NCBI GenBank assembly: GCA_963845755.1
Contig: CAWJTV010000013.1
Coordinates: 1 to 64,000, forward strand
Length of the DNA: 64,000 nt
Reading direction: 5' to 3'
Source of the DNA: an uncultured Planctomycetota bacterium
GTDB lineage: Bacteria > Planctomycetota > Planctomycetia > Isosphaerales > Isosphaeraceae
Position numbers and translations under genes: made by a program
Shown here: one piece after another, positions 994 to 15,997 of the stretch
How positions within the stretch are numbered: the first letter of the stretch is position 1
Layout of the letters: the number at the start of each line of letters is the position of its first letter
Notes under the pieces: generated by a model
What the model saw: the letters and a program-made list of their open reading frames with translations, nothing else
The model's database searches: none
What the model was told of the DNA's origin: nothing

Positions 994-3900
994 TTATCGC
1001 CCCCAACCGGAGAGGACGAACGCCGCCCATTGCTTCACCGGCGCGATCCTTCGCAGCGGGTTCCGGATGCCCGGCGCCGGGCACCGGCGCGGGGCGTTGC
1101 ACCACCTTGTCGAAGTCCGGCGTGCCCCGGACCGCGGCCAACTGGCCCACCAGCTCGGGATGGCGATAGAGCCTCAACTGGGCAGTCCGCAGCGCTTCGA
1201 TCGGCGGCTTGTGCAGTCGCCAGAACTGGTCGTAGAAGATTGCCATCAAGGCCGCGGTGGCCTGGTCGTCTACCATCCACAGGCTGGCGACGACGTTGTG
1301 CGCCCCGGCGAGGTGGAAGGCACGCTGGAGGCCGAAGACCCCCTCGCCGCCGGCGACTTCACCCCGGCCGGTCTCGCAGGCCGAGAGGACGGCCAGCTCC
1401 AGGTCCTGCAACGACAGCCCCGCAATGGCCTCGGCGGTGAGGATGCCTCGGTCGTCGCGCACCGTGGGATCGGCGCTGGCACTGGGGCGGTTGGCCCCGG
1501 CCAGGACCAACCCCGAGAGGACCAGCGGGTTGCGCAAGCCGGCGCCGATCCGCTCGCGGCCGATCGAGGAGAAGAGCTTGGGGTCGGGTCGCAGGACCGA
1601 GGGGATGCGGGGATCGGCGAAGAAGCCGTGGGTGGCGATGTGCGCCCAGCGGGCGCGGGGGAGCTCGCGGAGCAACTGGGCGGTGCCGGCATCGGTTCCC
1701 TGGAGGCGGACGGTGGTGCGCGAGCCGGCCGATTTGGCCACGGCGTTCAATTCCTGGAGCGTGCCGGGCAGATCCCCCCAGCCGTCGCCGCGGCCGCGCT
1801 GGGTCTCGGCCGGGCGCGCGGCCAGCAGCTCGACCTGGACTTTCTCATCGTCGACGGGCCTGGGCGCCTGGTCGTAGGCCACGCCGCCGACGGCCAGGAA
1901 GATTCCGGTATCGGCCGCCTCGGACGATCGCGGCGGGGCGGTGAGTCGATCGAGCAGGAATGGAGCGTGGGGGACAGTCGCCAGGGCATATTGCTCCAGG
2001 AGGACCGTTCCCGGCCGATCGCCGGGCAGCGCCGCCCAGGGAATCGCGGTGAGGGACCCGTCGGGGGCGATGATCGCGGTCGACGTATCGGGCGGGAGAT
2101 GTTTCGCCAGCGGTTCCCAGACCAGCCGGCGCAAGGTCTCGGCGGCGGGACTCGATTGGTGATGCTCGATCGCGCTGCGCCACTGGACCACGGCGGCGTC
2201 GATCGGCTGTGCCGGCCCGAGGTCGACCTGCCGCACGGGCCGGCCCTTGGCCAGCACGTAGCCGACGTAACTCGGTGTGTAGTGTTCTCCCTTTTCCCCT
2301 TGATCAGGGGGTCCTGTTCGAAGCGGATGAACCGCAGCAGGTCGAGAACGACGGTGCGCTCGGGGAGCGATTCCAGCAGCTTGGTATACGGACCTTGCTC
2401 CAAGACCCGTTGGCGAGCGAACTGGGGAAGGGCGTCGGCCAGTTGCCGCTCCAGCCGCTCCTTCTCGGTGGTGAGATGCTGGAGCTGTTGGAGCCGCTCG
2501 GGGTGGTCGCGGCCGTCGGCGGTGGCCAGCAGCAGCCGGGCGAGCTGGCCGCGGGTGTCGCGCCAGGCCTGGAGGTCGCGGCGGGTGGCCGGGTGCTCGG
2601 TCGCCCGTTGGAGGAACGCGGCCTGGCGGCTCTGGATCATGCGGGCGATGGCTGCTTTCCCTTTCCAGACTCGAGCATAGGCGGCTTGATTGCTGCCGGG
2701 CACGTGGAAAGAGACCGAAATCAGAGCATCTCGGGTGAGCGGCAACTGGGCCAGATAATTCAGCGCCTCGGCCTCGGAAGTGGCGGCCAGCAGGAGATCG
2801 GCCAGCTCTTGCTGCATGTCCACGGCTTGCTGGATTAAGGGCAGTGCCTCGGTGTCGAGGCGCTGGGCCAGGAGCAGGAAGCCCAGGTTGTTCAGGCCTC
2901 GGGCCAGGTCGGGGTGGCCGTGCGGATACTGCTCCTTGGGATAGATGGCCTGGTTCATCGCCAGCGCACGCTCGAAATACCCCCGCGCCTCGCCGTAGGC
3001 CCCCTGGCGTTGAACAAACCGCCCAGGTTGTTCAGGTTGATGGCGAGATCAGGGTGCCCCCGTGGATATCGTTCTTTGGGGTAGAGGGCCTGGTTCATCG
3101 CCAGCGCACGCTCGAAATACCCCCGCGCCTCGCCGTAAGCCCCCTGCTTCCAGAGCAGGGCGCCCAAGTTGTTCAGGGTGGTGGCCAGTTCGGGGCGTCC
3201 CTGCGGATTCCGAGCCTGGGGGTAGAGGGCTTGGGTCATCGCCAGCGCACGCTCGAGATACCCCCGCGCCTCGCCGTAGCGCCTTGGTCCTGGAGCACCA
3301 AGCCCACTTCGTTCAGGCTGGTGGCGAGATCGGGGTGTCCCTGCGGATACTGGTTCTTGGAGTAGATGGCCTGGCGCATCGCCAGCGCACGGACGTGATA
3401 GACCCGCGCCTCGTTGTAGGCGCCCTGGTACTTGAGCAGGACGCCCAGGTTGCTCAGGCTGAAGGCCAGATCGGGGTGTCCGTGCGGATATCGTTCCTTG
3501 GGGAAGAGGGCCTGTTGCATCGCCAGCGCCACGCTCGAGATACTCTCGCGCCTCGCCGTAGGCGCCCTGGTCCCTGAGCAGGCTACCCAGGTTGTTCAGG
3601 CCGATGGCGAGGTGGGGGTGTCCCTGGGGATTCCGAGCCTGGGGGTAGAGGATCTGTTTCATCGCCAGCGCCACGCTCGTAATACCCCCGTGCCTCGTCG
3701 TAGGTCCCCTGGGCATGGAGCAGCCATGCCCATTTCGTTCAGGCTGAAAGCCAACTCGGGGTGTCCGTGCGGATACTGCTCCTTGGAGTAGAGGGCCAGG
3801 TTCATCGCCAGCGCACGCTCGAGATACCCTCGCGCCTCGCCGTAGTCCTTCTGGGCGTTGAGCAAACCGCCCAGGTCGTTCAGGCTGGTGGCCAGGTGGG

Positions 3901-5178
3901 TGTGGCCCCGCGGATGCCGCTCCTTGGGGTAGAGGGCCTGGTTCATCGCCAGTGATCGCTCGTAATACCCCCGCGCTACGCCATAGTCCCCCTTATCTTT
4001 GAGCAGGGCGCCAAGGTTAGTCAGGCTTTGGGCCAGATCGGCGTGGCCCAGCGGATACGTCTCCTTGGGGTAGAGGGCCTCGCGCATCGCTAATGCTTGC
4101 TGGTAATACCCTCGCGCTCCGCCGTAGTCCCCCTGGGCGCAGAGCAGGAAACCCATCCCGTGCAGGCTGGCGGCCAGTTCGGGGTGGCCTTGCGGATACC
4201 GATCCTCGGGATAGAGGGCCTGGTTCATCTCCAGCGATCGCTGGAGATAGCCCCGCGCTCCGCCGTAGTCCCCCTGGGCCAAAAACAGGCTGCCCAGGTT
4301 GTTCAGGCTTTGGACCAGTTCGGGGTGGCCTTGTCGATACCGGCCCTTGGGATAAAGCGTCTCGCGCATCGCCAATGCTCGCTGGTAATACCCCCGCGCA
4401 CCGCCGTAGTCCTGCTGCTCGTGAAGCACATAGCCCAGGTTGTTCAGGCTGGTGGCCAGTTCGGGGTAACCCTGCGGATACTGCTCCTTGGGGTAGAGTG
4501 TTTCATTCATCACCAGCGCCTGTTGGAAATACCCCCGCGCCCTACCGCAGTCCCCCTGGTCAACGTGCAGCTTGCCTAGGTTGGACAGGCTGGCGGCCAG
4601 GTGGGAGTGACCTTGCGGATACTGCTCCTTGGGGTAGAGCGCTTCATTCATCGCCAGCGCCCGTGGAAGATACCCCCGCGCCCACCGTAGTCCCCCTGGG
4701 CCAGGAGGAGGGTGCCTAGGTTGTTCAGGCTTTGGGCCAGTTCGGTGTGCCCCTGCGGATACGTCTCCTTGGGGTAGAGGGCCTCGCGCATCGCTAATGC
4801 TTGCTGGTAATACCCTCGCGCTCCGCCGTAGTCCCCCTGGGCCTTGAGCAGGAAACCCATCGCGTGCAGGGTTTCGGCTAGTTCGGGATGGCCCTGCGGA
4901 AGCTCGCCCTGAGGATAAATCCGCTCGCGGATCTGGAGAGACTGCCTGGTCTTCTCGACGGCCGCACCAAGATCACCGCGCTGATAGGATCGGAAGCCGG
5001 CTTGGAACAGCTCGGATGCCTGGCGCTCCAGGTCCTTACGCTGCTCGGGCGTCAGCCGCTCCGGTGGATCATCCGCTCGCCCCGTGCAGGCCATCGCGAC
5101 GAGGAAGCAAAGACCCAGCAACCCGGTCACGAGCCGGGTTCGGCTCGAGCCGGATCGAGGAAGAAATGGGTTGATCAT
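994..5178 (-). CDS. exported TPR-repeat CHAT (caspase-like) protease, module 1 (several frameshifts)
   Basis: Signal peptide (LLGLCFLVAMACTGRA), many 46-aa TPR repeats (YPKEQYPQGHPELATSLNNLG), CHAT motifs APDGSL, HIATHGFF (catalytic His), LSACETG (catalytic Cys), VVASLW, C-terminal WAAFVLSG; joined from ORFs 4648..5415, 3659..4651, 3236..3532, 2955..3716, 1747..2958, 890..2257. Confidence 0.9.
2870..4930 (-). repeat. tandem 138-bp coding repeats (46-aa TPR units)
   Basis: Recurrent ttcatcgccagcgcacgctcga...ataccccgcgcctcgccgtag...cccaggttgttcagg units with about 138-nt period. Confidence 0.85.
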
Positions 5179-5237
5179 GAGGGGAATCTCCAAGGAAGTG
5201 CGAACGCGTGGAAGTCGAGCCGAAAGGGCGTGGGCAT

Positions 5238-5979
5238 TCATGACCCACCCTGGTTGGGGAAGATCACCGCCTGGTTGTAATCGCCCAGCGGCTGAACCTT
5301 GTCCTGCAACAGCCGGCGCAGACGGAGCACCGGATCGTCGCTCTTGCGGGTCCTGGACGTCGGAGCGGCACGGTTCTGGGGATCGAGCACCACCTCCCGG
5401 CCGTTCTCGATCCACACGGCCGTGTCGAGGGCCCGACGCGGTTGGGCCGCCGGGAGGGTCAGCCTTTTCGCGAGCTCGGCATCGCGGTCGCGCGGCAGGG
5501 GACGGGTCTCGCGCGCCAGCAGGACGACCGTCTCGAGGCCCGGTGCGCCCGCCGGGATCTCCCAGACGTCGTCCTTCTTCGGTGGCAGGTCAAGCCGGTC
5601 GCGTCTTGACCTCATCCGCCGGGCGTTGATCCCAGTGGCCCCGTTTCCAGGGGTAGATCGGGGCGGCCTTGCCATCGGAGCCGATCCAGAAGACGTAAAG
5701 GTAGGCCGGCCGGTTGAGCTTCGCCTCGATGCGGAACTGGTCGTGCGCCTTGAGCGGCAGGGCGCCCGGCTGGTCGAGCCGGAGGTTGCGGCGGCGGGGA
5801 CTGGCCGGGTCGTCGATCCGGAGGTGGATCGCGCCCCGCAACGGTTCGGCATCGTCGCGACGAGGGTCCGATCGTCGTGGCTCATCGCCCCACGCCCGCA
5901 GGCCGGTGATCGCCAGGGCCACGAGGAGCCAGGCCGTGCGGTGGATCTTCGGAGACGCCTCGCTGGACGCCGCTACGAA
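5238..5979 (-). pseudogene. stand-alone DUF4384-like exported protein, 3' part; 5' end at 7045-7184 separated by a REP/IS insertion
   Basis: Translation AWLLVALAITGLRAWGDE...FRIEAKLNRPAYLYVFWIGSDGKAAPIYPW...GLETVVLLARE...SDDPVLRLR...IFPNQGG is closely paralogous to the C-terminal domain of the upstream kinase. Confidence 0.7.
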
Positions 5980-6017
5980 TGGCCCTGAAGGGGCCAGACA
6001 AACCAGCCCGGGGCAAC
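5980..6017. repeat. REP-like arm (inverted partner at 7006-7044)
   Basis: TGGCCCTGAAGGGGCCagaCAAACCAGCCCGGGGCAAC versus reverse complement at 7006-7044. Confidence 0.7.
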
Positions 6018-7005
6018 CAACTTATTCCATTTGGAACGTAAGTCCTTGTCGATTCACGATCCGCACAGCATTGATCAGCAGTTTGGCCCAGACCCAACGC
6101 CACACCCGCCACGACCGGCGCACCCAGGCCGGCAGCGGACCCAGGCCGCCACCGAAGGAGGTCGCCTGGCCGAAGGATCGCTCGATCGCGCCGCGCATCG
6201 CGTAGAGGCTCTTCCCGAAATCTCCCTGCAACAGCTCGATGCAGCGGAGGCGGTACGGGCTTTGGCGGCGGTGTCCCAGTCCGGCCTTGGGGTCCTCGCC
6301 GGGGCTACCAACTGGTAGCCCGCGGCGCCCGCCGCGTCGAAGACCGGGTTGGCGTCGTACTCGCCATCGCCCAGCACGTAGCCACCGCCGCCGCAGTCGG
6401 CCAATTCCGGCAGCAACTGCTCGGCGGCCTTGGTCTCGGCGACATTCAGCGGTGTGATCGAACACACCTCGGGCATCGGACGGTTGCTCCAGACGGCGTG
6501 CAATTTGTAGCCCTTGGCGATCTTGCCGGCGCCGTGGCCATTGCGGGCATCCGGATCGTGACTGGCACCACCAACCGGCAAGGGCTTACCGTCGAGGATC
6601 TGTACCAACCGCGGGGGGACTACATCGCGGAGCCGCGTCGCCAAAGTCCGCATGAGGACGCCCACGGCCAAGCTCCGGAGTCGTCGGCTCAGAGTCGAGG
6701 GCGCGGGCAAACGACCCGGCTGGAGCGTCGTGGTCTTCCAGTGCCGAGGATCACAAGCCCAGCAGGCCGGTCGATCGTGAAGGGCGGCCCACAGGTGGAC
6801 CAGGACCAAGATGTGGGGCTGGTAGGAGACGTTGACCTGGCGGATCGAGCCACCCACCGCCATGACGAGGTGATACAGTTGCGGCCAGAGTTCCAGTTCC
6901 ATAGTTGCCCTCCTCTGAGGATTGTCTCTACTTCCATACATAGATACGATCCTGGGAGGGAAATTGTTCTGACATAAAGACTTGCGACCTAAATGGAATA
7001 AGTTG
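6018..7005. mobile_element. IS element (about 988 bp) with terminal inverted repeats, embedded between two inverted REP arms
   Basis: TIR CAACTTATTCCATTT at 6018-6032 and AAATGGAATAAGTTG at 6991-7005, imperfectly extended to about 30 bp; contains a DDE transposase. Confidence 0.85.
6022..6902 (-). CDS. DDE transposase (IS4/IS5/IS982-like; one frameshift)
   Basis: Motifs PSTLSRRL, ILDGKPL, GYKLHAV, LGDGEYD, RGAIERSFG; stop codon lies inside the left TIR. Confidence 0.85.
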
Positions 7006-7180
7006 GTTGCCCCGGGCTGGTTTGTTGCGGCCCCTTCAGGGCCAAAATCGGCCCGATGCGGCCTCAAGCCTGGTGGTGTTGGGCGGGAAGGCTCGATCTC
7101 CGTTCTGGACGAGTTGGTCGGCATCCCGACCGACAACTTCCGAACCGGCAATTCCTCGAAGTGATCGGGGTCTCTCATGT

Positions 7181-9111
7181 TCAACGGCCCCCCTGGTTCG
7201 GGACGATGACTGCCCGGTGATACGCGCCAAGAGCGGGGAGTTTCTTTCTCAAGAGCTCGCGGATCCGCAGCACGGGGTCATCGCTCTGGTGCGTCTTCGG
7301 GCCCGGTGCCGAGCGTTCTTGTTTGCCCTGCTCGTCGAAAGTGAATTCCCGGCCGCTCTCGAGCCAGATGGCTGCACGCTTTCGCGGGTCCCCTTCGGGG
7401 AGCTCGGTCCTCTGCGGGCCGGCCAGGTCCCGCTCCAGGGTGGTGTCGGCGTCGCGGGGCAGTGGGCTGTCTTCGCGAGCCAGGAGGACCAGCGTCTCCA
7501 GCCCTGGCGCTGAGGGGGGGAGCGACACCGTCTCGTCGATGACCTCGGGCAGCTCGATGCTCTCGACCTTGGCCTCGTGGGCCGGCCGCTGGTTCCAATC
7601 CCGTTCCTCCCAGGGGTAAAGCGGCGCAACCTTGCCGTCGGAGCCGATCCAGAACAGGTACAAGTACGCCGGGCGGTTGACCCCAGCCTCGACGCGCACC
7701 TCATCGCCGGGCTTGATCGGAACGGCGCCCTGCTCGTACAGCCGCAGGCCGCGACGCAGGGCGTTCCCCCGCTCGTCAACCCAGAGGGTGATCTTGCCGT
7801 GGAGTGGCGCGGGATCACTCGGAGGCGCCGGCGCTATCACGACCTGGGGGCTTTGCGAAGGGGCGGGCTCCGGCCGGTGCCACACGTAGTTGAGAATCAG
7901 CAGCGTGATCACCGCCAGGGCGGCACACGGCCGACAGCACGGCCTGAACCCGCGGCAAGGTCAGATAGCGATTGAGGGCTTTCTGGAAGGCCTCGGCCGA
8001 GGGATAGCGTTGGTCCGGGTCGGCGGCGAGGGCCTTGAGGCAGATCCGCCTCAGCCCGCGCGGGACCTTGGCCAGGCGGAGGGCCTCCTTCGGGAAGTCG
8101 CAACGCTTGGCGCGGTCCCAGATTTCCTCCGTGGTCTCGCCCACGAACGGCTGCTGGCCGGTGAGCAGCTAATATAAGACCGCACCCAGCCCGAAGATGT
8201 CACTCCGCGGGCCGATCCGGTCGTGCTCGAACCGGGCCTGCTCGGGGGCCATGTAGGCCAGCGTGCCGCCCCAGGTCGGGTCGGGTCGGTCGGACCAGGC
8301 GTGCCGCAAGCTCGCCAGGCCGAAGTCGATCAGCCGGGGCTCGACTCGATTCGTCGATCAGGATGTTCCGGGGCTTGATGTCGCGGTGGATGATCCCCCG
8401 CCGGTGTACCATCGCCAGGGCACCAGCCAGTTTGGCCACCAACTCCGCGGCCCGGCGCGGCGTGATCGGCTCGTTGGGGGCGTGGTCCTCCAGGTTGCTC
8501 GGCCGTGGACGTACTCCATCACCAGGAAGGGCGGCCATCGTGGAAGTCGAGGTCGTAGATCTTCAAGAGGTTGGCGTGCTTTCCAGGGCGATCAATGCCG
8601 GCCCTCCCGACAAGCGAGGTGTGCTCGTCGTCGCCGACAGGTTGGCGGCCCAGCTTGAGGACCATGTTCTGGCCCAGCTCGGGGTGGATGACCAGGTAGA
8701 CGTCCCCCTGGGCGCCTCTGTCGAGCTGTTCGACGACCTGGTACCTGCCGATGGCGCACGGGCCGCTCGGCCTTCACTCGGCGCGATCTGCGGGCCTCGG
8801 CCACGGCGTCCGGCCCCAAAGGTTCCGAGGTTCGCCGTCTCGAGCGGGTCGGACGTCCAGTCCAGGGTTGTTTCGCCGCCTGATGGCTGGCCCTCGGGGT
8901 GCAACGCCGGGTCAGGTACGGTCGAAGCCGCACTCAACCCGCTCTTGAGGGCCTGGCGCACCTCGGCCAGGTCGGCCCGGAGCCGCTCCAGGCGGGCGCG
9001 GCAGTCGGGACATCCCCCCAGATGCTGCTCGACCACCTCGGCGTCCGGCTCGCCGGTGACCAGCTTCAGCAATTCGGCGTCGTCAGGACAGGTCGGAATC
9101 GCAGAAGTCAT
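7181..9111 (-). CDS. Zn-finger anti-sigma-like / Ser-Thr protein kinase / TM / DUF4384-like protein, module 1 (frameshifts and one in-frame TAG)
   Basis: N-terminal CPD...[38 protein letters not shown] segment; C-terminal VRVEAGVNRPAYLYLFWIGSDG domain; TAG at 8169-8171 replaces Glu of VLYELLT. Confidence 0.85.
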
Positions 9112-9702
9112 CGTCGCATTCCCCCTCGAGCTCGACGCAGCGGCGCCGGACCTCTTTCAGGACACGCGAGGCGTTGACAAAGACGTGGTTGGCCGTGATC
9201 CCCAACTCGGCGGCGATCGTCGCGGCTGGACGGTCCTCGATCAGCCGACCCGTGAAGCACGCCCAGGCCGTCAATGAGACGGTTGCCAAACTTGCGGCAG
9301 CACGACCTCGAGGATCCGCTCGCGGTGCCTCTTGAGGAAGATCACCTCCAGCTCCCGGCTTTGGGACTGGTTCATCTCCCGAAACTGGCGAATCCACTCC
9401 TCTTGCACCCGGTCGCGGACCTTCCTCCGCCGTGCCCAATCGATCAGCGTATTGTGAGTGAATTTCCACAGGTACGTGCGGAATCGGCGCACGGCGCGGT
9501 CCAACTTGAACTTCGGCAGGGCGGCCAACAGCCGGATGAAAACCTCCTGCGTCAGGTCGTTGGCGTCAAACTCAGCCAGACCCAGCCCACGCAGATAACC
9601 GAAGATCAACGGACGGTAGATCTCGTGGAACTCGCGCCAGCTCGCTCCGTCGGCCGGGTTGCGGACCCGCTCCACAAGTGATATCCGGGTCGTCTCGGTC
9701 AT
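9083..9702 (-). CDS. ECF sigma-70 factor (kinase-associated planctomycete type), module 1 (frameshift)
   Basis: TRISLVERVRNPADGASWREFHEIYRPLI, DLTQEVF, FRTYLW, region 4 IAAELGITANHVFVNASRV. Confidence 0.9.
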
Positions 9703-9794
9703 GGCGATCACACCTGTGTACATCAGATCAGAATCTCTGGGATCGGCACAATTGTCGAGATGAGCGCCGAGATGCGGGTGGCGGCTCCCATCAC

Positions 9795-9820
9795 GTTACA
9801 CATCTCGGCGCGGCGATTCC
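9795..9820 (-). promoter_or_regulatory. putative ECF promoter GGAAT-N16-GTAAC upstream of sigma 1
   Basis: Minus strand GGAATcgccgcgccgagatgtGTAAC; same boxes and spacing conserved upstream of sigma 2. Confidence 0.6.
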
Positions 9821-9983
9821 AGGAGGCGCCCCAGCGATCCGCGACCGGCCGATCCGCTCGACCGCCTCGATCGAACCCGGGAGTCCTGCCCCACTCATTG
9901 TTACGCACCCCGGGCGCGAACCTTACAAGGTCATCCGGTCATCGTTCCCCGATCACCGACCCGTTGGCAGTTGAGCGCGCGGA

Positions 9984-10044
9984 AAAAGGGGACAGGCACC
10001 CGGCCCGCCGGCACTTGGCCCGAAATCCCCAGGACCATGCCGGG
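9984..10044. repeat. REP-like hairpin downstream of CHAT 2
   Basis: aaaggggacaggcacccggcccg ... cgggccgggagcccgtcccctttc inverted arms. Confidence 0.55.
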
Positions 10045-10141
10045 CCGGGAGCCCGTCCCCTTTCTCCGGTCCCGTGTGCCGTCCGAGTGGGATACGCTCC
10101 AGCCGGCCAGCATTCCGGATCGGGGGACACCTCGCACGCAT

Positions 10142-13100
10142 TCAGTCCGGGTCACCCACCAGCACGAACGCGGCCCAGAACCGCGGATGACCGAACGGCC
10201 GCGGGCCGGTAGGCGGGGGCTGCTGAGGCGGCTGAGGTGCTACCGATTTGCCGGCCGAGGCCAGCGGGCGCACCGTCCCGCGCTGCGATAACGCGGTCAG
10301 CTCGTGGATCACCTCATCCCGGGTGAGGTTCCGCAACCAACGCTTGGCCTCGTCCAGCGCCTCGGCCTTGGGCATCGGCTTGGTGAGCCCCGGCCGCTCG
10401 CCGAGCAGGTTCTGGTAGAACCGCACCATCAAGAGCGCGGTGGCGACGTCGCTCACGCTCCACTGGCTCAGCACCAGGCTGCGGGCTCCCTTGATGAACA
10501 GCGCCTGGGCGAAGCCCAGATAACCCTCGCCGCTGGCCTGCCGGCCGAGTCCGGTCTCGCAGGCGGAGAACACCACCATGTCGGCATCGAGGGTCCAGGT
10601 GTTGAGGATCTGCTCGGCCGTGATCCGGCCGTCGGACTCGATTGCCGAGAGCCTCGAGGGCGGGCGGCCACCCGCGTCGGGGCCCAGGATCAGGGCGGAG
10701 CTCATCGCCACATCGGGGTCGACTGACCCGTGGGTCGCGAAGTGGAGGAACCGCAACTGCGCCAGTTCTCCCGAAGCGGCCAGATGCTGGACCGCTCCCT
10801 CCGTGGCCTGCGCGCCGAGGAGTGTCGTCGCTGCCGCCGTGGGGAAGAGCGCGGCGATCGCCTGGACTTCGCGGCGCGTGCCGGGCAATCGCGGCAGCGG
10901 GTTCGCCGACCGTGGATCATAGAGCGGGTCGCCCACGGCCAGGAGCTTCCGCGCGCGAGGACGGCTCGCGCCCGCCTTCACGAGCTGGGCGAACAGGGTC
11001 CCGGAGGGCGCGTAGGAGACGACCAGCGGCGGACCGTCCGTCCGGGCTTCCACCAAGACCTCGATGGGAATGCCGGCCATGTCCGGTGATGGGAGCACGA
11101 TCAGCCGGCGGAGGCCCTTGAGATGGGGCGCGAGCGGCGCCAGCCGCTGGCGGGCGACCCGGGCGGCCTGCTCCCGCCAGTCGGAGTCCGCGTCCAGCAG
11201 GGCGACGCGGAGCTCTTCCCGGAGCCGATCATCCGGATCCGTCCAGGCTCCATCCGCCCCACTTCCCGGGGCCCGAATCCAGATCGGATCCCCCTCGGGC
11301 GCGCACCAGGCACGCCCAGTGCAGGGATACCGTCCGTTGCTGATCCTTCACATCCACCCAGCCGACCAGGGCCGCGTCGGGCGGCAGCGTGGCCTGGATC
11401 GCTTCCAGCGAAGTCCGCTTGCCGCCGAACGCCCCGTACTGGGCCTCGAATGCCTGATCGAGTTCCAGCAGCCGTCCGTTCAGGGTGTCCCGTTGTCGGC
11501 GCAGGCGGTCCAGCACGACCTGGGTTTGCGCGCTGGGGACGCGGTTCTCGGTCAGGTCGCCGATCTGCTCGTCGAACTGCTGGATCTGTCGGCGGAGGCG
11601 CTCTTCCTGGGTCCGCTGCGCGGGGGTCAGCGGCCGGAGCTGTCGGGCCGAGAGGTCGTCGAGCAAGCCCTGGCCCAGGCTCGACTCCCACCGCCTCCAG
11701 GCCTCGCGGACTTGACCCTGCGAGGCCAGGGCGGCGGCCAGCGCAGGCTGCGGGTCATAACGGACGGCCTGCGATCTCCCCAGCCCCGATCGGCTCAGCG
11801 CCCGTCGGCCTCTCTCGAAGCCATCGGATGCGGCCGTCCAGGAGGTGATCGCCTCCGCGGTCCGGCCGAGCGCCTGCAAGGCATAAGCGAGATTGTTGTA
11901 GGCCAGTGCCGTCTCGGGGTGGTCCTCGCCCAGCGTCTTGCGCCGGATGTCCAGGGCCTTCTGGGACGGGGGCAAGGCGTCGGCGTACCGTCCCTGGCGG
12001 GCCAGATCGTCGGCCAGATTGTGGTAGGCCAGGCCGGTGTCGGGGTGATCCTCGCCCAGGACCTTGCGACGGACCTCCAGGCTCTTCTGATACAGGGGCA
12101 AGGCGTCGGCGTACCGACCTTGACGGGCCAGGCTGAAGGCCAGGTTGTGATAGGCTGTCGCTGTGTCGGGGTGATCCTCGCCCAGGACCTTGCGGTAGAT
12201 GTCCAGGACCTTCTGGTGCAAGGGCAAGGCGTCGGCGGGCCGCTTCTGTTGATCCAGGTTCATGGCCAGGTTGTTGTAGGTCTGAGCGGTGTCGGGGTGG
12301 TCCGCGCCCAGGACCGCGAGCCGGATCTCCAGGGCTTTCTCGTACAGGGGCAGCGCGTCCGCATAGCGCCCCTGCTCGTCCAGGTTGGCACCAGATTGTT
12401 GTAGGCCGTTGCGGTGCTGGGGTGGTCCTCGCCCGCGACCCGGCGGTAGATGTCCAGGGCCCGCTGGTGCAGGGGCAGGGCGTCGGCATGCCGCCCCTGA
12501 CGATCCAGGTTGGCGGCCAGGTTGCCATAGGCCATTGCGGTCTCGGAGTGGCCCTCGCCCAGGACCTTGCGCCGGATCTCCAGGGCTTTCTGGAACAGGG
12601 GCAGTGCGTCAGCATGCTGTCCCTGACGATCCAGGTTAGCGGCCAGATTGTTATAGGACACCGCGGTGCTGGGGTGGTCCTCGCCCAGGAGCTTGCGCCG
12701 CAGCTCCAGGGCCTTGCGGAAGAGGGGCAAGGCGTCGGCATGACGCCCCAACTCACCCAGGTTGGTCGCCAGACTGTTATAGGCCATCGCGGTGCTGGGG
12801 TGGTCCTCGCCCAGGCCCTTGCGCCGGAGCTCCAGGGCCTTCTGATACAGGGGCAGTGCGTCGGCACGCCGCCCCTGCTCATCCAGGCTGACGGCCAGGT
12901 TGTTGACGGGCGTCGCCGTCGCAGGGTGGTCCGCGCCAGCCAGCGTCGGCGGGTTTCGATCACGGCGCGATAGATTTTCTCGGCCTCGCGGTACGCGTGC
13001 TTTCGTTCCAGGGCGACGGCTCGGCGCTCTTCGGAATAGGCCGAGCTCATGGCGCGCTGGCCTTCCGCAGGGAGGCTCGCCAGCTCCTTGATCAGGTCCA

Positions 13101-13408
13101 ATCGATAACGCGAGCCGACCGTCTCCCAGTGCCCTGCACCGAGCAGCCTGGTGCGAATCTCGAGCACTTCGCGAGCGGGAACCAGGGCCTCCGCGAACCG
13201 CCCCGCATCCTCGAGCTGGCTGATCTGCCGGTTGAGGGCGGCAACCTTCGAGGCCGCTTCCTTGGTGAGACGACGCGGCGCAGGAGGAAGAGACGTTTCT
13301 CTTCTCTTTTTCGGTTTGCGATACAAGCCCGGCGGCTGGAGCCAGGGTCACCACCGTTGTGACGACGATCAAGAGGCTGATGGATTTAACCGGGGATCGA
13401 GGTGTCAT
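10142..13408 (-). CDS. exported TPR-repeat CHAT protease, module 2 (several frameshifts)
   Basis: Signal peptide (SISLLIVVTTVVTLAPAAG), 42-aa TPRs (LGEDHPSTAMAYNNLA), CHAT motifs LPGTRRE, HFATHGS, FSACETG, VLSQWSV, FWAAFVLVG. Confidence 0.9.
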
Positions 13409-13451
13409 GAAGGGTGTTCCGGATGGGATGCCTATTGCACGATCGATGGGA

Positions 13452-15314
13452 TTACCGTCGGTTCTTGACAGGAAAGGCGAGAGCCTGGATCGCCTCGACT
13501 CCGGGACCGGCCCGGAGGGCGCGGCAGGCCGCTTCCAGTGACGGCGGCAGGTCGGCCAGGGGACGGACATCGCCGCGCGGGGTGTCGCGACCGAAAGAGC
13601 GTCCGTTGTATTGCCAGACGTTCTCGATCGGGGCCGGTTTCCAGGGCAGATTGCCGAGCTTGCGAGTCCATTCGCCATAAGGCGGCAGGGGCTGGGCCGA
13701 GGCGACCAGGACGAACGCCTGTGTGCCGGCCCCGTCGGTCAGGCCGAAACCCGAGAGTGGGTCGGGCGGGTAGTCAATCGTGGCCGTCGCGGCCGGGGCG
13801 ATCTCGGGCGATTTGGGATAACAGAGCTGGGTCGTGCCGTTGGGATTCAAGGCGATCAGAAAGCAATGGGCGGGGATGCTGAGCTGGACCTGAACGCGGA
13901 CATCCTGTTCGACCCGGCTCACGAAGGCCTCGCTTCCGATCCGTCCCGCGGGATCACCCGGCACGCGGCCGTGAAGCTCGGCATGGAACGATTCGACTCG
14001 CAGCGCCGCGGGCGTCAACGAGATCGGTGCTGATGGGGCGCGTTCAATCACCACGGTGGAGATTTGAGACGGGATGGGGTCCGGCCGGGGCCACACGTGA
14101 TTGAGCACCAAAGGCCCGAGCACGGCGAGGGCGCATGCAGCCGACAGCACGCCCAGAACCTTCGGCCGGATGAGATACGCGCCGCAATGCCTTCTCGAAG
14201 GCCTCGGCCGAAGGATAGCGCCGGTCCGGATCTGCGGCCAGGGCCTTGAGACAGATCCGCACCAGCCGTCGCGGGACCTTGGCGAGGCGGAGGGCGTCCT
14301 TCTCGAAGTCGCAACGCTTGGCGCGGTCCCAGATTTCCTCCGTGGTCTCGCCCACGAACGGCGGTTGGCCGGTGAGGAGTTCGTACAGGACCGCACCCAA
14401 ACCGAAGACATCGCTCCGCGGGCCGATCCGGTCGTATTCGCGTCGGGCTTGCTCGGGGGCCATGTAGGCCAGCGTGCCGCCCCAGGTCGAGTCGGGGCAG
14501 TCGGACCAGGCGTGCCGCAGTCGCCCAGGCCGAAGTCGATCAGGCGGGGCTCACCCGATTCGTCGATCAGGATGTTCCGCGGCTTGATGTCGCGGTGGAT
14601 GACCCCTCGCCGGTGGACCATCGCCAGGGCGCCGGCCAGCCTGGCCACCAGTTCCGCCGCTCGTCGCGGAGTGATCGGCTCGTCGCGGGCGTAGTCCTCG
14701 AGGTTCCGGCCGTGGATGTACTCCATCACCAGGAACGGCTGCTCGTTGTGGAAGTCCAGGTCGTAGATCTTCACCAGGTTGATGTGCTCCAGGTCTTTCA
14801 GCAGCCGGCCCTCCTTGACGAGTGAGACACGCTCGTCGCCGCCGACAGGCCGGCGACCCAGTTTGAGCACCATGTCCTGGCCCAGCCCGGGATGGATCAC
14901 CCGGTAGACGTCCCCCTGGGCTCCGCTGCCCAGCGTCTCGACGACCAGGTATTTACCGATGGCGCCGGGCCGCTCGGCCTGCGCCTCGGCGCGTTGCCGG
15001 GCTGCGGCGACCGCCTCCGGCCCGATCGGTTCCGGAGCCGCCGTCTGAAGCGGGTCGGACGTCCAGTCGAGGGTCGTCCCGCCGCCTGATGGCCGGCCTT
15101 CGGGGTGCAACGCCGGGTCGGGCTCGGTCGAAGGGGGGATCCGGCCGCCTTCGAGATCCCGGCGCAAGGCCGTCAGCTCGGCCCGGAGCCGCTCCAGGCG
15201 GTCGCGGCAGTCGGGACATCCTTCCAGGTGCTGCTCGATCGCCGCGACGGCCGGCTCGCCGGTGGCGACCGGCAGCAGCTCGTTCTCGTCAGGACAGGTC
15301 AGAATCGGAGCCAT
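13452..15314 (-). CDS. Zn-finger / Ser-Thr kinase / TM / DUF4384-like protein, module 2 (local frameshift pair near 14520 and 14185)
   Basis: [54 protein letters not shown]-terminal [22 protein letters not shown] domain. Confidence 0.9.
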
Positions 15315-15904
15315 CGTCCCATTCCCCCTCGAGCTCGGCGAAGCGGCGCCGGACCTCTTGCAAGACCCGCGAGGCGTAGACATAGACGACGGTCGGCTTG
15401 ATCCCCCGCTCGGCGGCGATCGTCGCGCCCGGCCGGCCCTGGACCAGCCGTCCCTCGAAGCACGCCCAGGCCGTCAATGAGACGGTTGCCCGAACCTGCG
15501 GCAGCACGACCTCCAGGGATCCGCTTGCGGTGCCGATTGCGGAAGATCCCCTCCAGCTCCCGGCTCTCGGACTCATTCATCTCACAGAATCGCCGTCCCC
15601 ACTCCTTTTCCGCACGGTCCCGGACCTTCCCCCGGCGCACCCAATCGATCATCGCGTTGTGCGTGAGCTTCCACAAATACGTGCGGAATCGACCACGTGT
15701 CCGGTCCAGCTCGAAGGTCGGTAGGATCGCCAGCAGCCGCTGGAAGACCTCCTGCGCCAGTTCGTGAGCATCATGCTCCTCGAGGCCAAGGCTGCGCAGA
15801 TATCCGAAGATCACCGGGCGGTAGATTTCGTCGAACTGGTTCCAGCTCGCGGCGTCCGCGAGGTCGCGCACCCGCATCAGGAGCGATAATCGGGTCTCGG
15901 ACAT
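15289..15904 (-). CDS. ECF sigma-70 factor, module 2 (frameshift)
   Basis: TRLSLLMRVRDLADAASWNQFDEIYRPVI, ELAQEVF, RGRFRTYLW; paralog of 9083-9702. Confidence 0.9.
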
Positions 15905-15997
15905 GGCGATCGTACTCGCGATCATCGGATCAGGATCCCTGGGATCGGCACAATTGTCGAGATGGGCGCCGATGTCCTGGGAGCGTACTCACATCAG

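Follow-up and report, generated by a model that had tools for sequence, protein, structure and literature searches.

An arginine-anchored peptide shared by a putative TPR-CHAT protease and the ectodomain of its neighbouring kinase co-varies between paralogous planctomycete modules

The window analysed here is a stretch of 64,000 nucleotides (contig CAWJTV010000013.1, assembly GCA_963845755.1) from the 14.3-Mb, 66% GC genome of an uncultured bacterium of the family Isosphaeraceae (Planctomycetota). Its annotated part, the first 17 kb, holds two modules on the minus strand, each with genes for a sigma factor of the extracytoplasmic function (ECF) class, a kinase and a TPR-CHAT protein. In module 2, the CHAT domain and the kinase ectodomain share an eight-residue peptide, RGTVRPLA in the former and RGDVRPLA in the latter. 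Comparison of neighbouring gene pairs across genomes indicates that the two copies have changed together in evolution. The pattern suggests that the protease carries its own imitation of a substrate, and that this separates signalling modules running in parallel.

A preliminary description of this DNA had singled out the two peptides, and re-reading the sequence shows its account of them to be exact: seven of the eight residues are identical, and four of these seven (the glycine, the valine, the second arginine and the proline) are written with different codons (Table 1). RGTVRPLA occupies residues 273-280 of a 318-residue CHAT fragment (10142-11098), and RGDVRPLA residues 603-610 of the 643-residue open reading frame (ORF) of kinase 2. 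Taken alone, the pair is mildly unusual and suggestive at most. A 7/8 match somewhere between the two proteins arose in 80 of 5000 residue shuffles, and the freedom to look anywhere in the window makes the pair by itself unconvincing. In the six-frame translation of the genome (28.5 million residues), RG.VRPLA has five matches, two of which are these sites, and RG.[VI]RPL has 31. Once the sequences from other genomes are included, the similarity is far above chance.

These sequences were collected by searching 121 genomes from the window's family, with the kinase 2 ectodomain as query; 36 of them gave matches. Sixty loci were taken with about 8 kb downstream, and both tails were located by profiles on six-frame fragments, which were used because they are robust to frameshifts. 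In the resulting 54 modules, four of them from the window's genome, the kinase tail is followed by a same-strand CHAT tail 2.7-7.2 kb downstream; ten kinase tails without a CHAT tail were excluded, three of which (L052, L063 and L087) end at contig ends. The comparison of cognate with shuffled neighbour pairs, a test set beforehand, strongly supported co-variation. The best ungapped eight-residue BLOSUM62 window, placed without any anchor, had a mean score of 26.5 for cognate versus 17.6 for non-cognate pairs (p<=5e-5 by naive permutation). Because related modules are not independent, permutation was also carried out on one random representative per cluster, with clusters built on the identity of the flanking domains and the motif excluded. 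With 25 clusters p was <=5e-4, and with 13 clusters the median p was 5e-4 and the maximum 0.008.

Aligning the tails on the arginine locates the likeness. This comparison used 50 modules, after removal of L076, whose loop holds a frameshift, of the genome's C19 module, which lacks R-small at the anchor, and of L090 and C11b, which are type 1 and have another anchor. Cognate identity at positions +2 to +8 was 0.32, 0.70, 0.60, 0.54, 0.72, 0.56 and 0.22, versus 0.12, 0.15, 0.22, 0.14, 0.22, 0.14 and 0.09 for non-cognate pairs; no cognate excess was found at -3 to -1 or at +9 and +10. The score over +2 to +9 was 16.5 for cognate and -1.0 for non-cognate pairs, with permutation p<=2e-4 for 11-27 clusters and <=0.0014 for seven clusters.

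The same holds inside single genomes. Within 21 genomes with two to five modules (type 1 included), the cognate CHAT was the unique best match for 47 of 57 modules, where 21 were expected, at p<=5e-5, a value that overstates independence because the same orthologous modules recur in several genomes. In the window's genome, four of five modules match themselves, the exception being module 1. Paralogous modules of one genome do carry different versions of the motif, as had been proposed, but the motif, contrary to the earlier proposal, is not private to module 2: RG.VRPLA is common to the orthologous clade in other genomes. Versions given as kinase/CHAT include RG.VRPLA/RG.VRPLA, RGDILRRE/RGSIVRRE, RGKGVKAR/R[GS]KG.KAR, RRGEPR.RSG/TRGEPRAK.G, LRGDILRRESAP/LPRGSIVRREAVAP, GTRGKGVKARGSG/VER[GS]KG.KARQP, QRGKDAPIRG/ERGKDAEARRP, TRGVVVS/TRGGVVT and RGR.EAA.PL/RG..ETALQV. 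Two loci from other families of the class also match (RGTKTRR/RGDKTRR and RGEGEPF/RGELEAE). Codons were identical at 124 of 273 identical residues in cognate pairs (45%) versus 2964 of 7048 in non-cognate pairs (42%), and the codon argument against DNA copying, originally made for the window pair, holds over the 50 pairs. Seven loci (L060, L062, L065, L071, L075, L080 and L082) have two tandem TPR-CHAT genes behind one kinase, both with the motif class of that kinase.

The motif was then followed through both families. Among 53 kinase homologues at E<=1e-3, RG.[VI]R occurs in 38 tails and RG.[VI]RPL in 26; among the best 120 of 1461 CHAT homologues, the counts are 63 and 59. Close-clade kinase ectodomains read x-R-G-[DETAG]-[VI]-R-P-L-A-D-L-P, and R-G persists in the remotest members. 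Many CHAT loops, between the helix 'EAK.WLR.L' and the last strand 'HPYYWAAFILIGDP', read E-L-A-A-L-[DE]-R-G-x-V-R-P-L-A. R-G is conserved at >=90% in alignments A1 (76 CHATs), A2 (41 kinases), A3 (22 ectodomains) and A4 (49 sequences); the glycine is invariant in A2, and the arginine is one of six invariant columns among the diverse ectodomains of A3, which upholds the earlier proposal of Arg as the invariant residue. The kinase 2 ectodomain family comprises 1960 cluster representatives at E<=1e-3. Complete tails are present in 138 of 145 further representatives of 50%-identity clusters, and in 133 of the 138 an Arg precedes the 'FPV' strand by a constant 34±4 residues. The residue after this Arg is G in 110 of the 133 and S or A in 13, and the six residues after that pair are distinct in 132 of them. 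As aligned, both families thus display a nearly invariant Arg-small residue and, after it, residues that are hypervariable. Beyond the window's bacterial family few genomes carry the ectodomain: a profile search with A3, which scored eight candidates per genome, found it in 8 of 401 phylum-sampled genomes, the window's own included.

Three observations touch the motif itself. In P0208 (1715 residues), a single ORF holds kinase, ectodomain and TPR-CHAT, including both copies of the motif (RGDVRQLT and RGTIRPLA), which may reflect either a genuine fusion or a read-through call. Four ectodomains without a CHAT within about 8 kb downstream (L058, L059, L066 and L084) have R-R or no Arg-Gly at the motif site, which looks like partner loss accompanied by motif decay; they look like one clade and thus count as one event. 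An integrin-type RGD in RGDVRPLA was considered and rejected, since the third residue varies (D/E/T/A/G).

Module 1 belongs to a related family. A search with the kinase 1 domain matched 22 of the 121 genomes, and 20 loci were taken. In type 1a, the family of the window's module 1, kinases read R-[GS]-x-P-S-x-K-T-R-K-S-D-D-P, stand-alone ectodomain copies R-[AS]-x-P-S and CHAT loops R-G-T-P-[DE]-F-D-K; the one first-listed CHAT loop that departs from RGTP[DE]F (L102) reads RAGTPDF, and L109, off frame, was not counted. The preliminary description had seen R-small-small-P in all three proteins of module 1. Its peptides are exact and the pattern is conserved in the family; what they share is only R-small-x-P, and the within-genome best match fails. 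Type 1b, which includes the genome's C11 module, matches further (RGIGEEADKL/RGPGETAVKL, RGIDE../RGIDE.., RGL../RGL.. and RGP../RGP..), and its seven modules alone give an exact permutation p of 0.028. Loci L098-L109 hold an extra exported stand-alone ectodomain, which has its own R-[AS]-x-P-S and an N-terminus resembling a signal peptide or lipobox. This type-1a copy directly follows a CHAT gene in 10 of 12 loci and may serve as decoy, inhibitor or second substrate.

Structure predictions place both copies of the peptide in loops. The CHAT copy does not lie in a free C-terminal tail, as had been supposed; the loop that holds it is internal and joins the last helices to the final beta strand (HP.FWAAFVLVGDP). 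The AlphaFold2 model of the CHAT homologue P0088 (1156 residues, 76-row alignment) has a mean predicted local distance difference test (pLDDT) score of 83.9; its loop 1109-1132, with R1110-G1111 right behind the last long helix, is below 50. The model of the kinase 2 ectodomain (49-row alignment, pLDDT 91.5) shows a beta-sandwich, then a helix and, at the end, a long strand. Here the motif is the sole weak block (mean pLDDT 63), a coil between strand 167-169 and helix 184-194. Both motif copies are therefore predicted to lie in flexible, accessible loops of otherwise confident models. The CHAT loop may be the equivalent of the caspase L4 loop, which lines the substrate groove. A hydrophobic signal-like N-terminus was found in 68 of 89 full-length CHAT homologues and in both CHAT genes of the window. 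Together with the single transmembrane helix before the kinase ectodomain, these N-termini predict that both copies are periplasmic.

Domain searches agree with this architecture. The CHAT (PF12770) profile matches the CHAT 2 fragment at E 3.2e-56 and 191 bits (cut-off 24) and CHAT 1 at E 1.7e-58, and TPR_10/TPR_12 matches N-terminal to CHAT confirm the TPR-CHAT order. HFATHG and FSACETG are intact in CHAT 2; their His and Cys, which we take from the family's known pattern to be the catalytic residues, are invariant among the homologues (Table 1). Foldseek placed DdvA (8rw5, E 4.4e-11; 8rot), separase, TPRs of the kinesin-light-chain (KLC) type and Csx29 (8eey) on top for the P0088 model; the matches to DdvA 8rw5, separase and Csx29 have probability 1.00 and low TM-scores of 0.18-0.29. 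Searched against solved structures, the A1 profile gave only TPR and PDZ matches among the 60 matches listed. Many CHAT homologues (P0065-P0172) carry a PDZ insert (PF17820/PF13180; residues ~800-880 of P0088) that matches PDZ domains of RseP-type and DegP-type proteases in a profile search. The window's CHAT 2 and its closest relatives have no PDZ insert, and the motif is still present in them.

At the N-terminus of kinase 2, zf-HC2 (PF13490) scores 20.7 bits, under the cut-off of 22.2; the N-terminal consensus of 41 kinase homologues reads H.D.C.AC, the zf-HC2 motif being H-x3-C-x2-C, and the head is a candidate anti-sigma domain. The kinase 2 ectodomain has no Pfam DUF4384 match at E<=0.01. 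Three of its homologues have a precomputed PF14326 match, and its profile reaches type-1 ectodomains weakly (E 7e-6 to 4e-14). A Foldseek search of the PDB with the ectodomain model returned nothing at E<=1e-3. Macroglobulin (MG) domains are not claimed as relatives, since their Z of 7.2 (root-mean-square deviation 2.0, 86 aligned), the best of the wide VIA-align search, lies in the noise band. Csx30 is not among the listed VIA-align rows, but may still be related to the ectodomain.

To model the complex, the CHAT region 500-1156 of P0088 was paired, using custom alignments, with the ectodomain 435-639 of P0037, presumed to be its cognate solely because the contigs of origin are equally long. 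The interface score ipSAE was 0.34 (runs 0.34, 0.32 and 0.43) versus 0.00 for the best control, which is graded as weak support and gives no interface. The runs agree in >=36% of contacts, and partner pLDDT is >=79. For comparison, 116 of 157 solved complexes attain the ipSAE mark, as do 2 of 215 mismatches, and the band <=0.60 holds 18 of those 157 solved complexes plus both passing mismatches.

We then propose a model for how the operon may work. It encodes an ECF sigma factor, a membrane protein (zinc-finger anti-sigma-like head, kinase, transmembrane helix and beta-sandwich ectodomain) and a predicted exported cysteine protease of the TPR-CHAT type, similar to caspase and separase. The ectodomain is predicted to expose a flexible loop with an invariant Arg, a small residue and about seven clade-specific residues, and a flexible loop of the protease, directly ahead of the last strand, carries this peptide as well. 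Peptides that both drift and yet remain alike are most simply two ligands of one evolving site. Both would compete for one protease site, formed by the active-site cleft, with the Arg at P1, and a docking surface next to it. Of the two, the ectodomain copy would serve as substrate, and its cut would detach the C-terminal helix and strand of the sandwich. This may act as site-1 cleavage, leading to intramembrane proteolysis, sigma release and/or altered kinase output. The copy in the protease itself would act either as an autoinhibitory pseudo-substrate or as a site of autocleavage, like its counterpart in separase. Since the heptads differ between paralogous modules and match within a module, the heptad may act as an address against cross-reaction. 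The analysis itself establishes the motif common to both proteins, with its invariant and hypervariable parts, the co-variation of cognates, the loop setting, the intact His-Cys dyad and the export signals; binding to one site, the Arg as P1, cleavage and its downstream consequences are what we infer from these patterns. For separase-like substrate and pseudo-substrate mimicry around an Arg P1, giving site-1 cleavage of the anti-sigma/kinase protein, we see an even chance.

Parts of this model have precedents. In the DegS/RseA/RseP system, a single-pass anti-sigma factor receives its site-1 cut in the periplasmic domain from a periplasmic protease; this enzyme, DegS, belongs to the serine proteases and has neither a TPR array nor a copy of the substrate site in its own chain. 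The PDZ insert of many CHAT homologues, related to the PDZ domains of RseP and DegP, adds a likeness to that system. The TPR-plus-caspase-like architecture of separase was recovered by Foldseek. The cuts of separase follow an invariant P1 Arg; like substrates and securin, the enzyme's autocleavage motifs fill its active site and its TPR docking sites (available text of PMC12609080). There, as far as that text describes, the copies of the substrate motif lie in a flexible insert of its own chain, and securin mimics the substrate. Unlike the proteins studied here, separase is eukaryotic and cytoplasmic and has no sigma factor or kinase partner. Its motif lies on the non-prime side (ExxR) and is one conserved motif, versus the hypervariable co-varying heptad found here; its own-chain copy lies in a TPR-like insert, whereas here it stands before the last strand of the protease domain.

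Craspase offers a second likeness, in that a TPR-CHAT protease acts on a sigma-binding protein and cuts it within a loop of that protein's C-terminal beta domain. In the available text of two sources, Csx29 cuts Csx30 at the M427/K428 bond, in a beta-hairpin of the C-terminal beta domain (bioRxiv 10.1101/2022.08.17.504292; PMC11506125); in that of the former, Csx30 binds an RpoE sigma factor, and its C-terminal domain is DUF4384 in one group. Unlike module 2, craspase (type III-E CRISPR) is cytoplasmic, RNA-triggered and bound to Cas7-11; its P1 is Met, or Leu in another species, and the available descriptions include neither a site copy in the protease itself nor a kinase. DdvA/DdvS of Myxococcus xanthus also links a periplasmic TPR-CHAT to a zinc anti-sigma domain and an ECF sigma factor. 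According to the accessible part of PMC11506125, DdvA is a zinc anti-sigma factor with a periplasmic TPR-CHAT, and a self-cut of its linker as site 1 before RseP is proposed but unproven. DdvA joins anti-sigma head, transmembrane helix and TPR-CHAT in one chain, whereas here two genes are involved and the protease is separate and exported; unlike DdvA, the membrane protein here includes a DUF4384-like ectodomain and a kinase domain. The three-helix element of the substrate pocket is missing from DdvA, and the part of its description at hand mentions no shared motif.

As in the kinase-linked ECF groups, the ECF sigma gene here adjoins a membrane Ser/Thr kinase gene. ECF43, ECF59-62, ECF217, ECF267 and ECF283 are linked to Ser/Thr kinases and common in Planctomycetes; as described in the main text of PMC7826278, where CHAT is absent, such groups typically have no anti-sigma factor and are regulated by phosphorylation. 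A full-text literature search, with subscription journals and supplements outside it, found no CHAT motif shared with a neighbouring kinase or DUF4384 protein. Related systems are known in DdvA, Craspase-Csx30 and separase, and what appears to be new is the co-varying motif shared by a CHAT protease and its neighbour. BASS motifs are amyloid-prone stretches of 20-25 residues at the termini of adjacent NLR and effector gene products. A BASS-type amyloid pair was rejected, since the motif here is 8-9 residues long, highly charged and internal to folded domains, sharing only the principle of a motif common to neighbours.

Several points weigh against the mimicry model. The support comes from models and from statistics on sequences. 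Co-variation falls on the prime side, C-terminal to the Arg, whereas separase reads mainly P6-P1 and clan-CD enzymes are usually P1-dominated; a plain picture of Arg P1 plus S' subsites would then need unusual extended prime-side or exosite recognition. The predicted complex scores in the weak band. Neither single-protein model docks its loop (pLDDT <50 and 63), and the active site is not favoured over the TPR groove. With five clusters, one of which holds 49 of the 54 modules, the anchor-free permutation is not significant; deep clades are few, so the independent parallel changes are perhaps 6-10, not 50. Type 1a has no heptad likeness beyond R-small-x-P, and L040, L067, L079, L081 and the genome's C19 module have little likeness beyond R-G. 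The window's own genes are frameshifted as assembled. CHAT proteases are not uniformly Arg-specific, since craspases cut after Met or Leu (available text of bioRxiv 10.1101/2022.08.17.504292 and PMC11506125).

One alternative is that the peptide is a docking ligand. The R-small-heptad would be bound by the TPR groove or PDZ insert of the protease, whose own loop would be an intramolecular competitor displaced by the ectodomain, and any proteolysis would take place at another site, if it occurs. The TPR array belongs to the kinesin-light-chain type, and KLC1 TPR structures, several with bound cargo peptides, are among the top profile matches (E 1.6e-96). Co-variation to the point of identity is expected of two ligands of one groove, the prime-side co-variation is awkward for a pure active-site model, and the PDZ insert of many homologues would offer another site. 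The autocleavage and substrate motifs of separase also bind its TPR-like domain (available text of PMC12609080). However, the PDZ insert is lacking in CHAT 2 and its closest relatives, which keep the motif, and the models and complex prediction gave no groove contact. Scissile bonds are typically marked by such a pattern, an invariant Arg and then a small residue, and an enzyme with an invariant catalytic dyad needs a substrate, for which the neighbour is the obvious candidate. We consider docking rather unlikely.

It is still less probable, in our judgement, that a third component reads both loops and differs between modules, such as another periplasmic protease, a maturation factor or an outer-membrane partner. 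Co-variation alone is silent on which site reads the peptides, and the exported stand-alone copies of type 1a imply that more than two motif carriers can exist. However, the modules are compact, the stretch between the two tails being mostly filled by the TPR-CHAT gene; a module-specific reader would have to be encoded elsewhere and yet co-evolve, and the complex prediction, weak as it is, favours direct contact. The absence of any functional link is hardly credible: chance in a GC-rich genome could produce the window pair, to judge from the shuffles and the genome-wide matches given above, but neither chance nor gene conversion between the two genes fits the excess of cognate over non-cognate likeness, within-genome controls that hold composition constant included, the parallel changes in several clades and two other families of the class, or the similar codon identity of cognate and non-cognate pairs.

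Separase-like mimicry, if it operates here, would bear on how CHAT proteases choose their targets, which is largely unexplained outside separase and craspase, and on how cross-talk is avoided among dozens of ECF sigma/kinase modules in one bacterium, an open question. A co-evolving motif of enzyme and neighbour names a likely substrate, a likely scissile or docking site and the specificity residues, and the prediction covers a family of about 2000 sequence clusters. Self-mimicry of the separase kind would extend to bacterial periplasmic signalling, and the proposal that TPR-CHAT domains are site-1 proteases of anti-sigma factors would gain independent support. A further-reaching possibility, which we entertain with some reserve, is that Arg-small plus heptad forms a programmable address code, each TPR-CHAT recognising only the ectodomain with its own heptad and being gated by its own loop. 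One planctomycete could then run five or more orthogonal protease/anti-sigma-kinase pathways in parallel, heptad swaps would re-wire which protease fires which sigma factor, and orthogonal protease-substrate pairs could be drawn from the code for synthetic circuits.

Table 1 Features of the two modules in the window, and further modules of the host genome (prefixed by contig)
Feature	Position	Strand	Description
TPR-CHAT 1 gene	994-5178	minus	lipoprotein-like signal, TPR array, CHAT; several frameshifts
CHAT 1 loop RGTP	1118-1129	minus	RGTP[DE]F in 10/11 first-listed type-1a CHAT loops
Stand-alone DUF4384-like gene, module 1	5238-5885	minus	tblastn in two frames; frameshift near 5600
Stand-alone copy RAAP	5361-5372	minus	relatives R[AS].PS, signal-peptide-like N-termini
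DDE transposase ORF	6075-7184		PF01609, E 3.2e-11; abuts stop of kinase 1 (7181)
Kinase 1 C-terminal part with DUF4384	7181-7912	minus	Pfam PF14326, E 3.8e-7, 30.5 bits (cut-off 27)
Kinase 1 ectodomain RSAP	7304-7315	minus	relatives R[GS].PS
ECF sigma factor, module 1	9083-9723	minus	
TPR-CHAT 2 gene	10142-13408	minus	signal-peptide-like N-terminus, TPR_10/TPR_12 array, CHAT domain (Pfam; tblastn of homologue P0056)
CHAT 2 copy RGTVRPLA, flanks Q..S	10259-10282	minus	CGC GGG ACG GTG CGC CCG CTG GCC
FSACETG, catalytic Cys of CHAT 2 (presumed)	10550-10570	minus	Cys column invariant in 76 homologues
HFATHG, catalytic His of CHAT 2 (presumed)	10727-10744	minus	His column invariant in 76 homologues
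Kinase 2, 643-residue ORF	13452-15383	minus	zf-HC2-like N-terminus, Ser/Thr kinase (E 4.8e-29), one transmembrane helix, ectodomain
Kinase 2 ectodomain, 213 residues, DUF4384-like	13455-14093	minus	beta-sandwich, then helix and strand (AlphaFold2 pLDDT 91.5)
Kinase 2 ectodomain copy RGDVRPLA, flanks P..D	13554-13577	minus	CGC GGC GAT GTC CGT CCC CTG GCC
Kinase 2 transmembrane helix	about 14103-14159	minus	hydrophobic 19-mer
ECF sigma factor, module 2	15299-15925	minus	Pfam Sigma70_r2 (region 2), E 1.8e-11; C-terminal part apparently off frame
Further module	C9:151.7-156 kb		
Further module	C11:47-51 kb		
Further module	C11:625-629.6 kb		
Further module	C19:57.9-62.5 kb		
Further module	C29:0-7 kb		

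As assembled, almost all genes of both modules (994-15925) are frameshifted. TPR-CHAT 2 reads in four frame segments, with shifts near 12935, 12392 and 11290. CHAT 1 is shifted near 1000, its true last strand, KQWAAFVLSGWGR, ending at 994, and region 4 of both ECF sigma genes is in another frame. A three-frame reading of kinase 2 shows two shifts, at ~14524 and ~14150, which compensate each other and leave about 115 C-lobe codons out of frame. The sole public run with words of this sequence (share 0.11) is a soil metagenome (X1), whose contigs cover 11 of 30 bins. One short independent contig from it (depth 2.6) has an extra base behind 14524 that restores DFGLAR, so at least that shift is probably an assembly indel; the remaining frameshift sites fall outside the coverage of these contigs.

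In module 1, the transposase occupies the place that a TPR-CHAT gene has in related loci, whose order is kinase, TPR-CHAT and stand-alone copy; its position suggests an insertion or rearrangement. Elsewhere in the host genome, at least five further kinase/TPR-CHAT modules (Table 1) each carry their own version of the motif.

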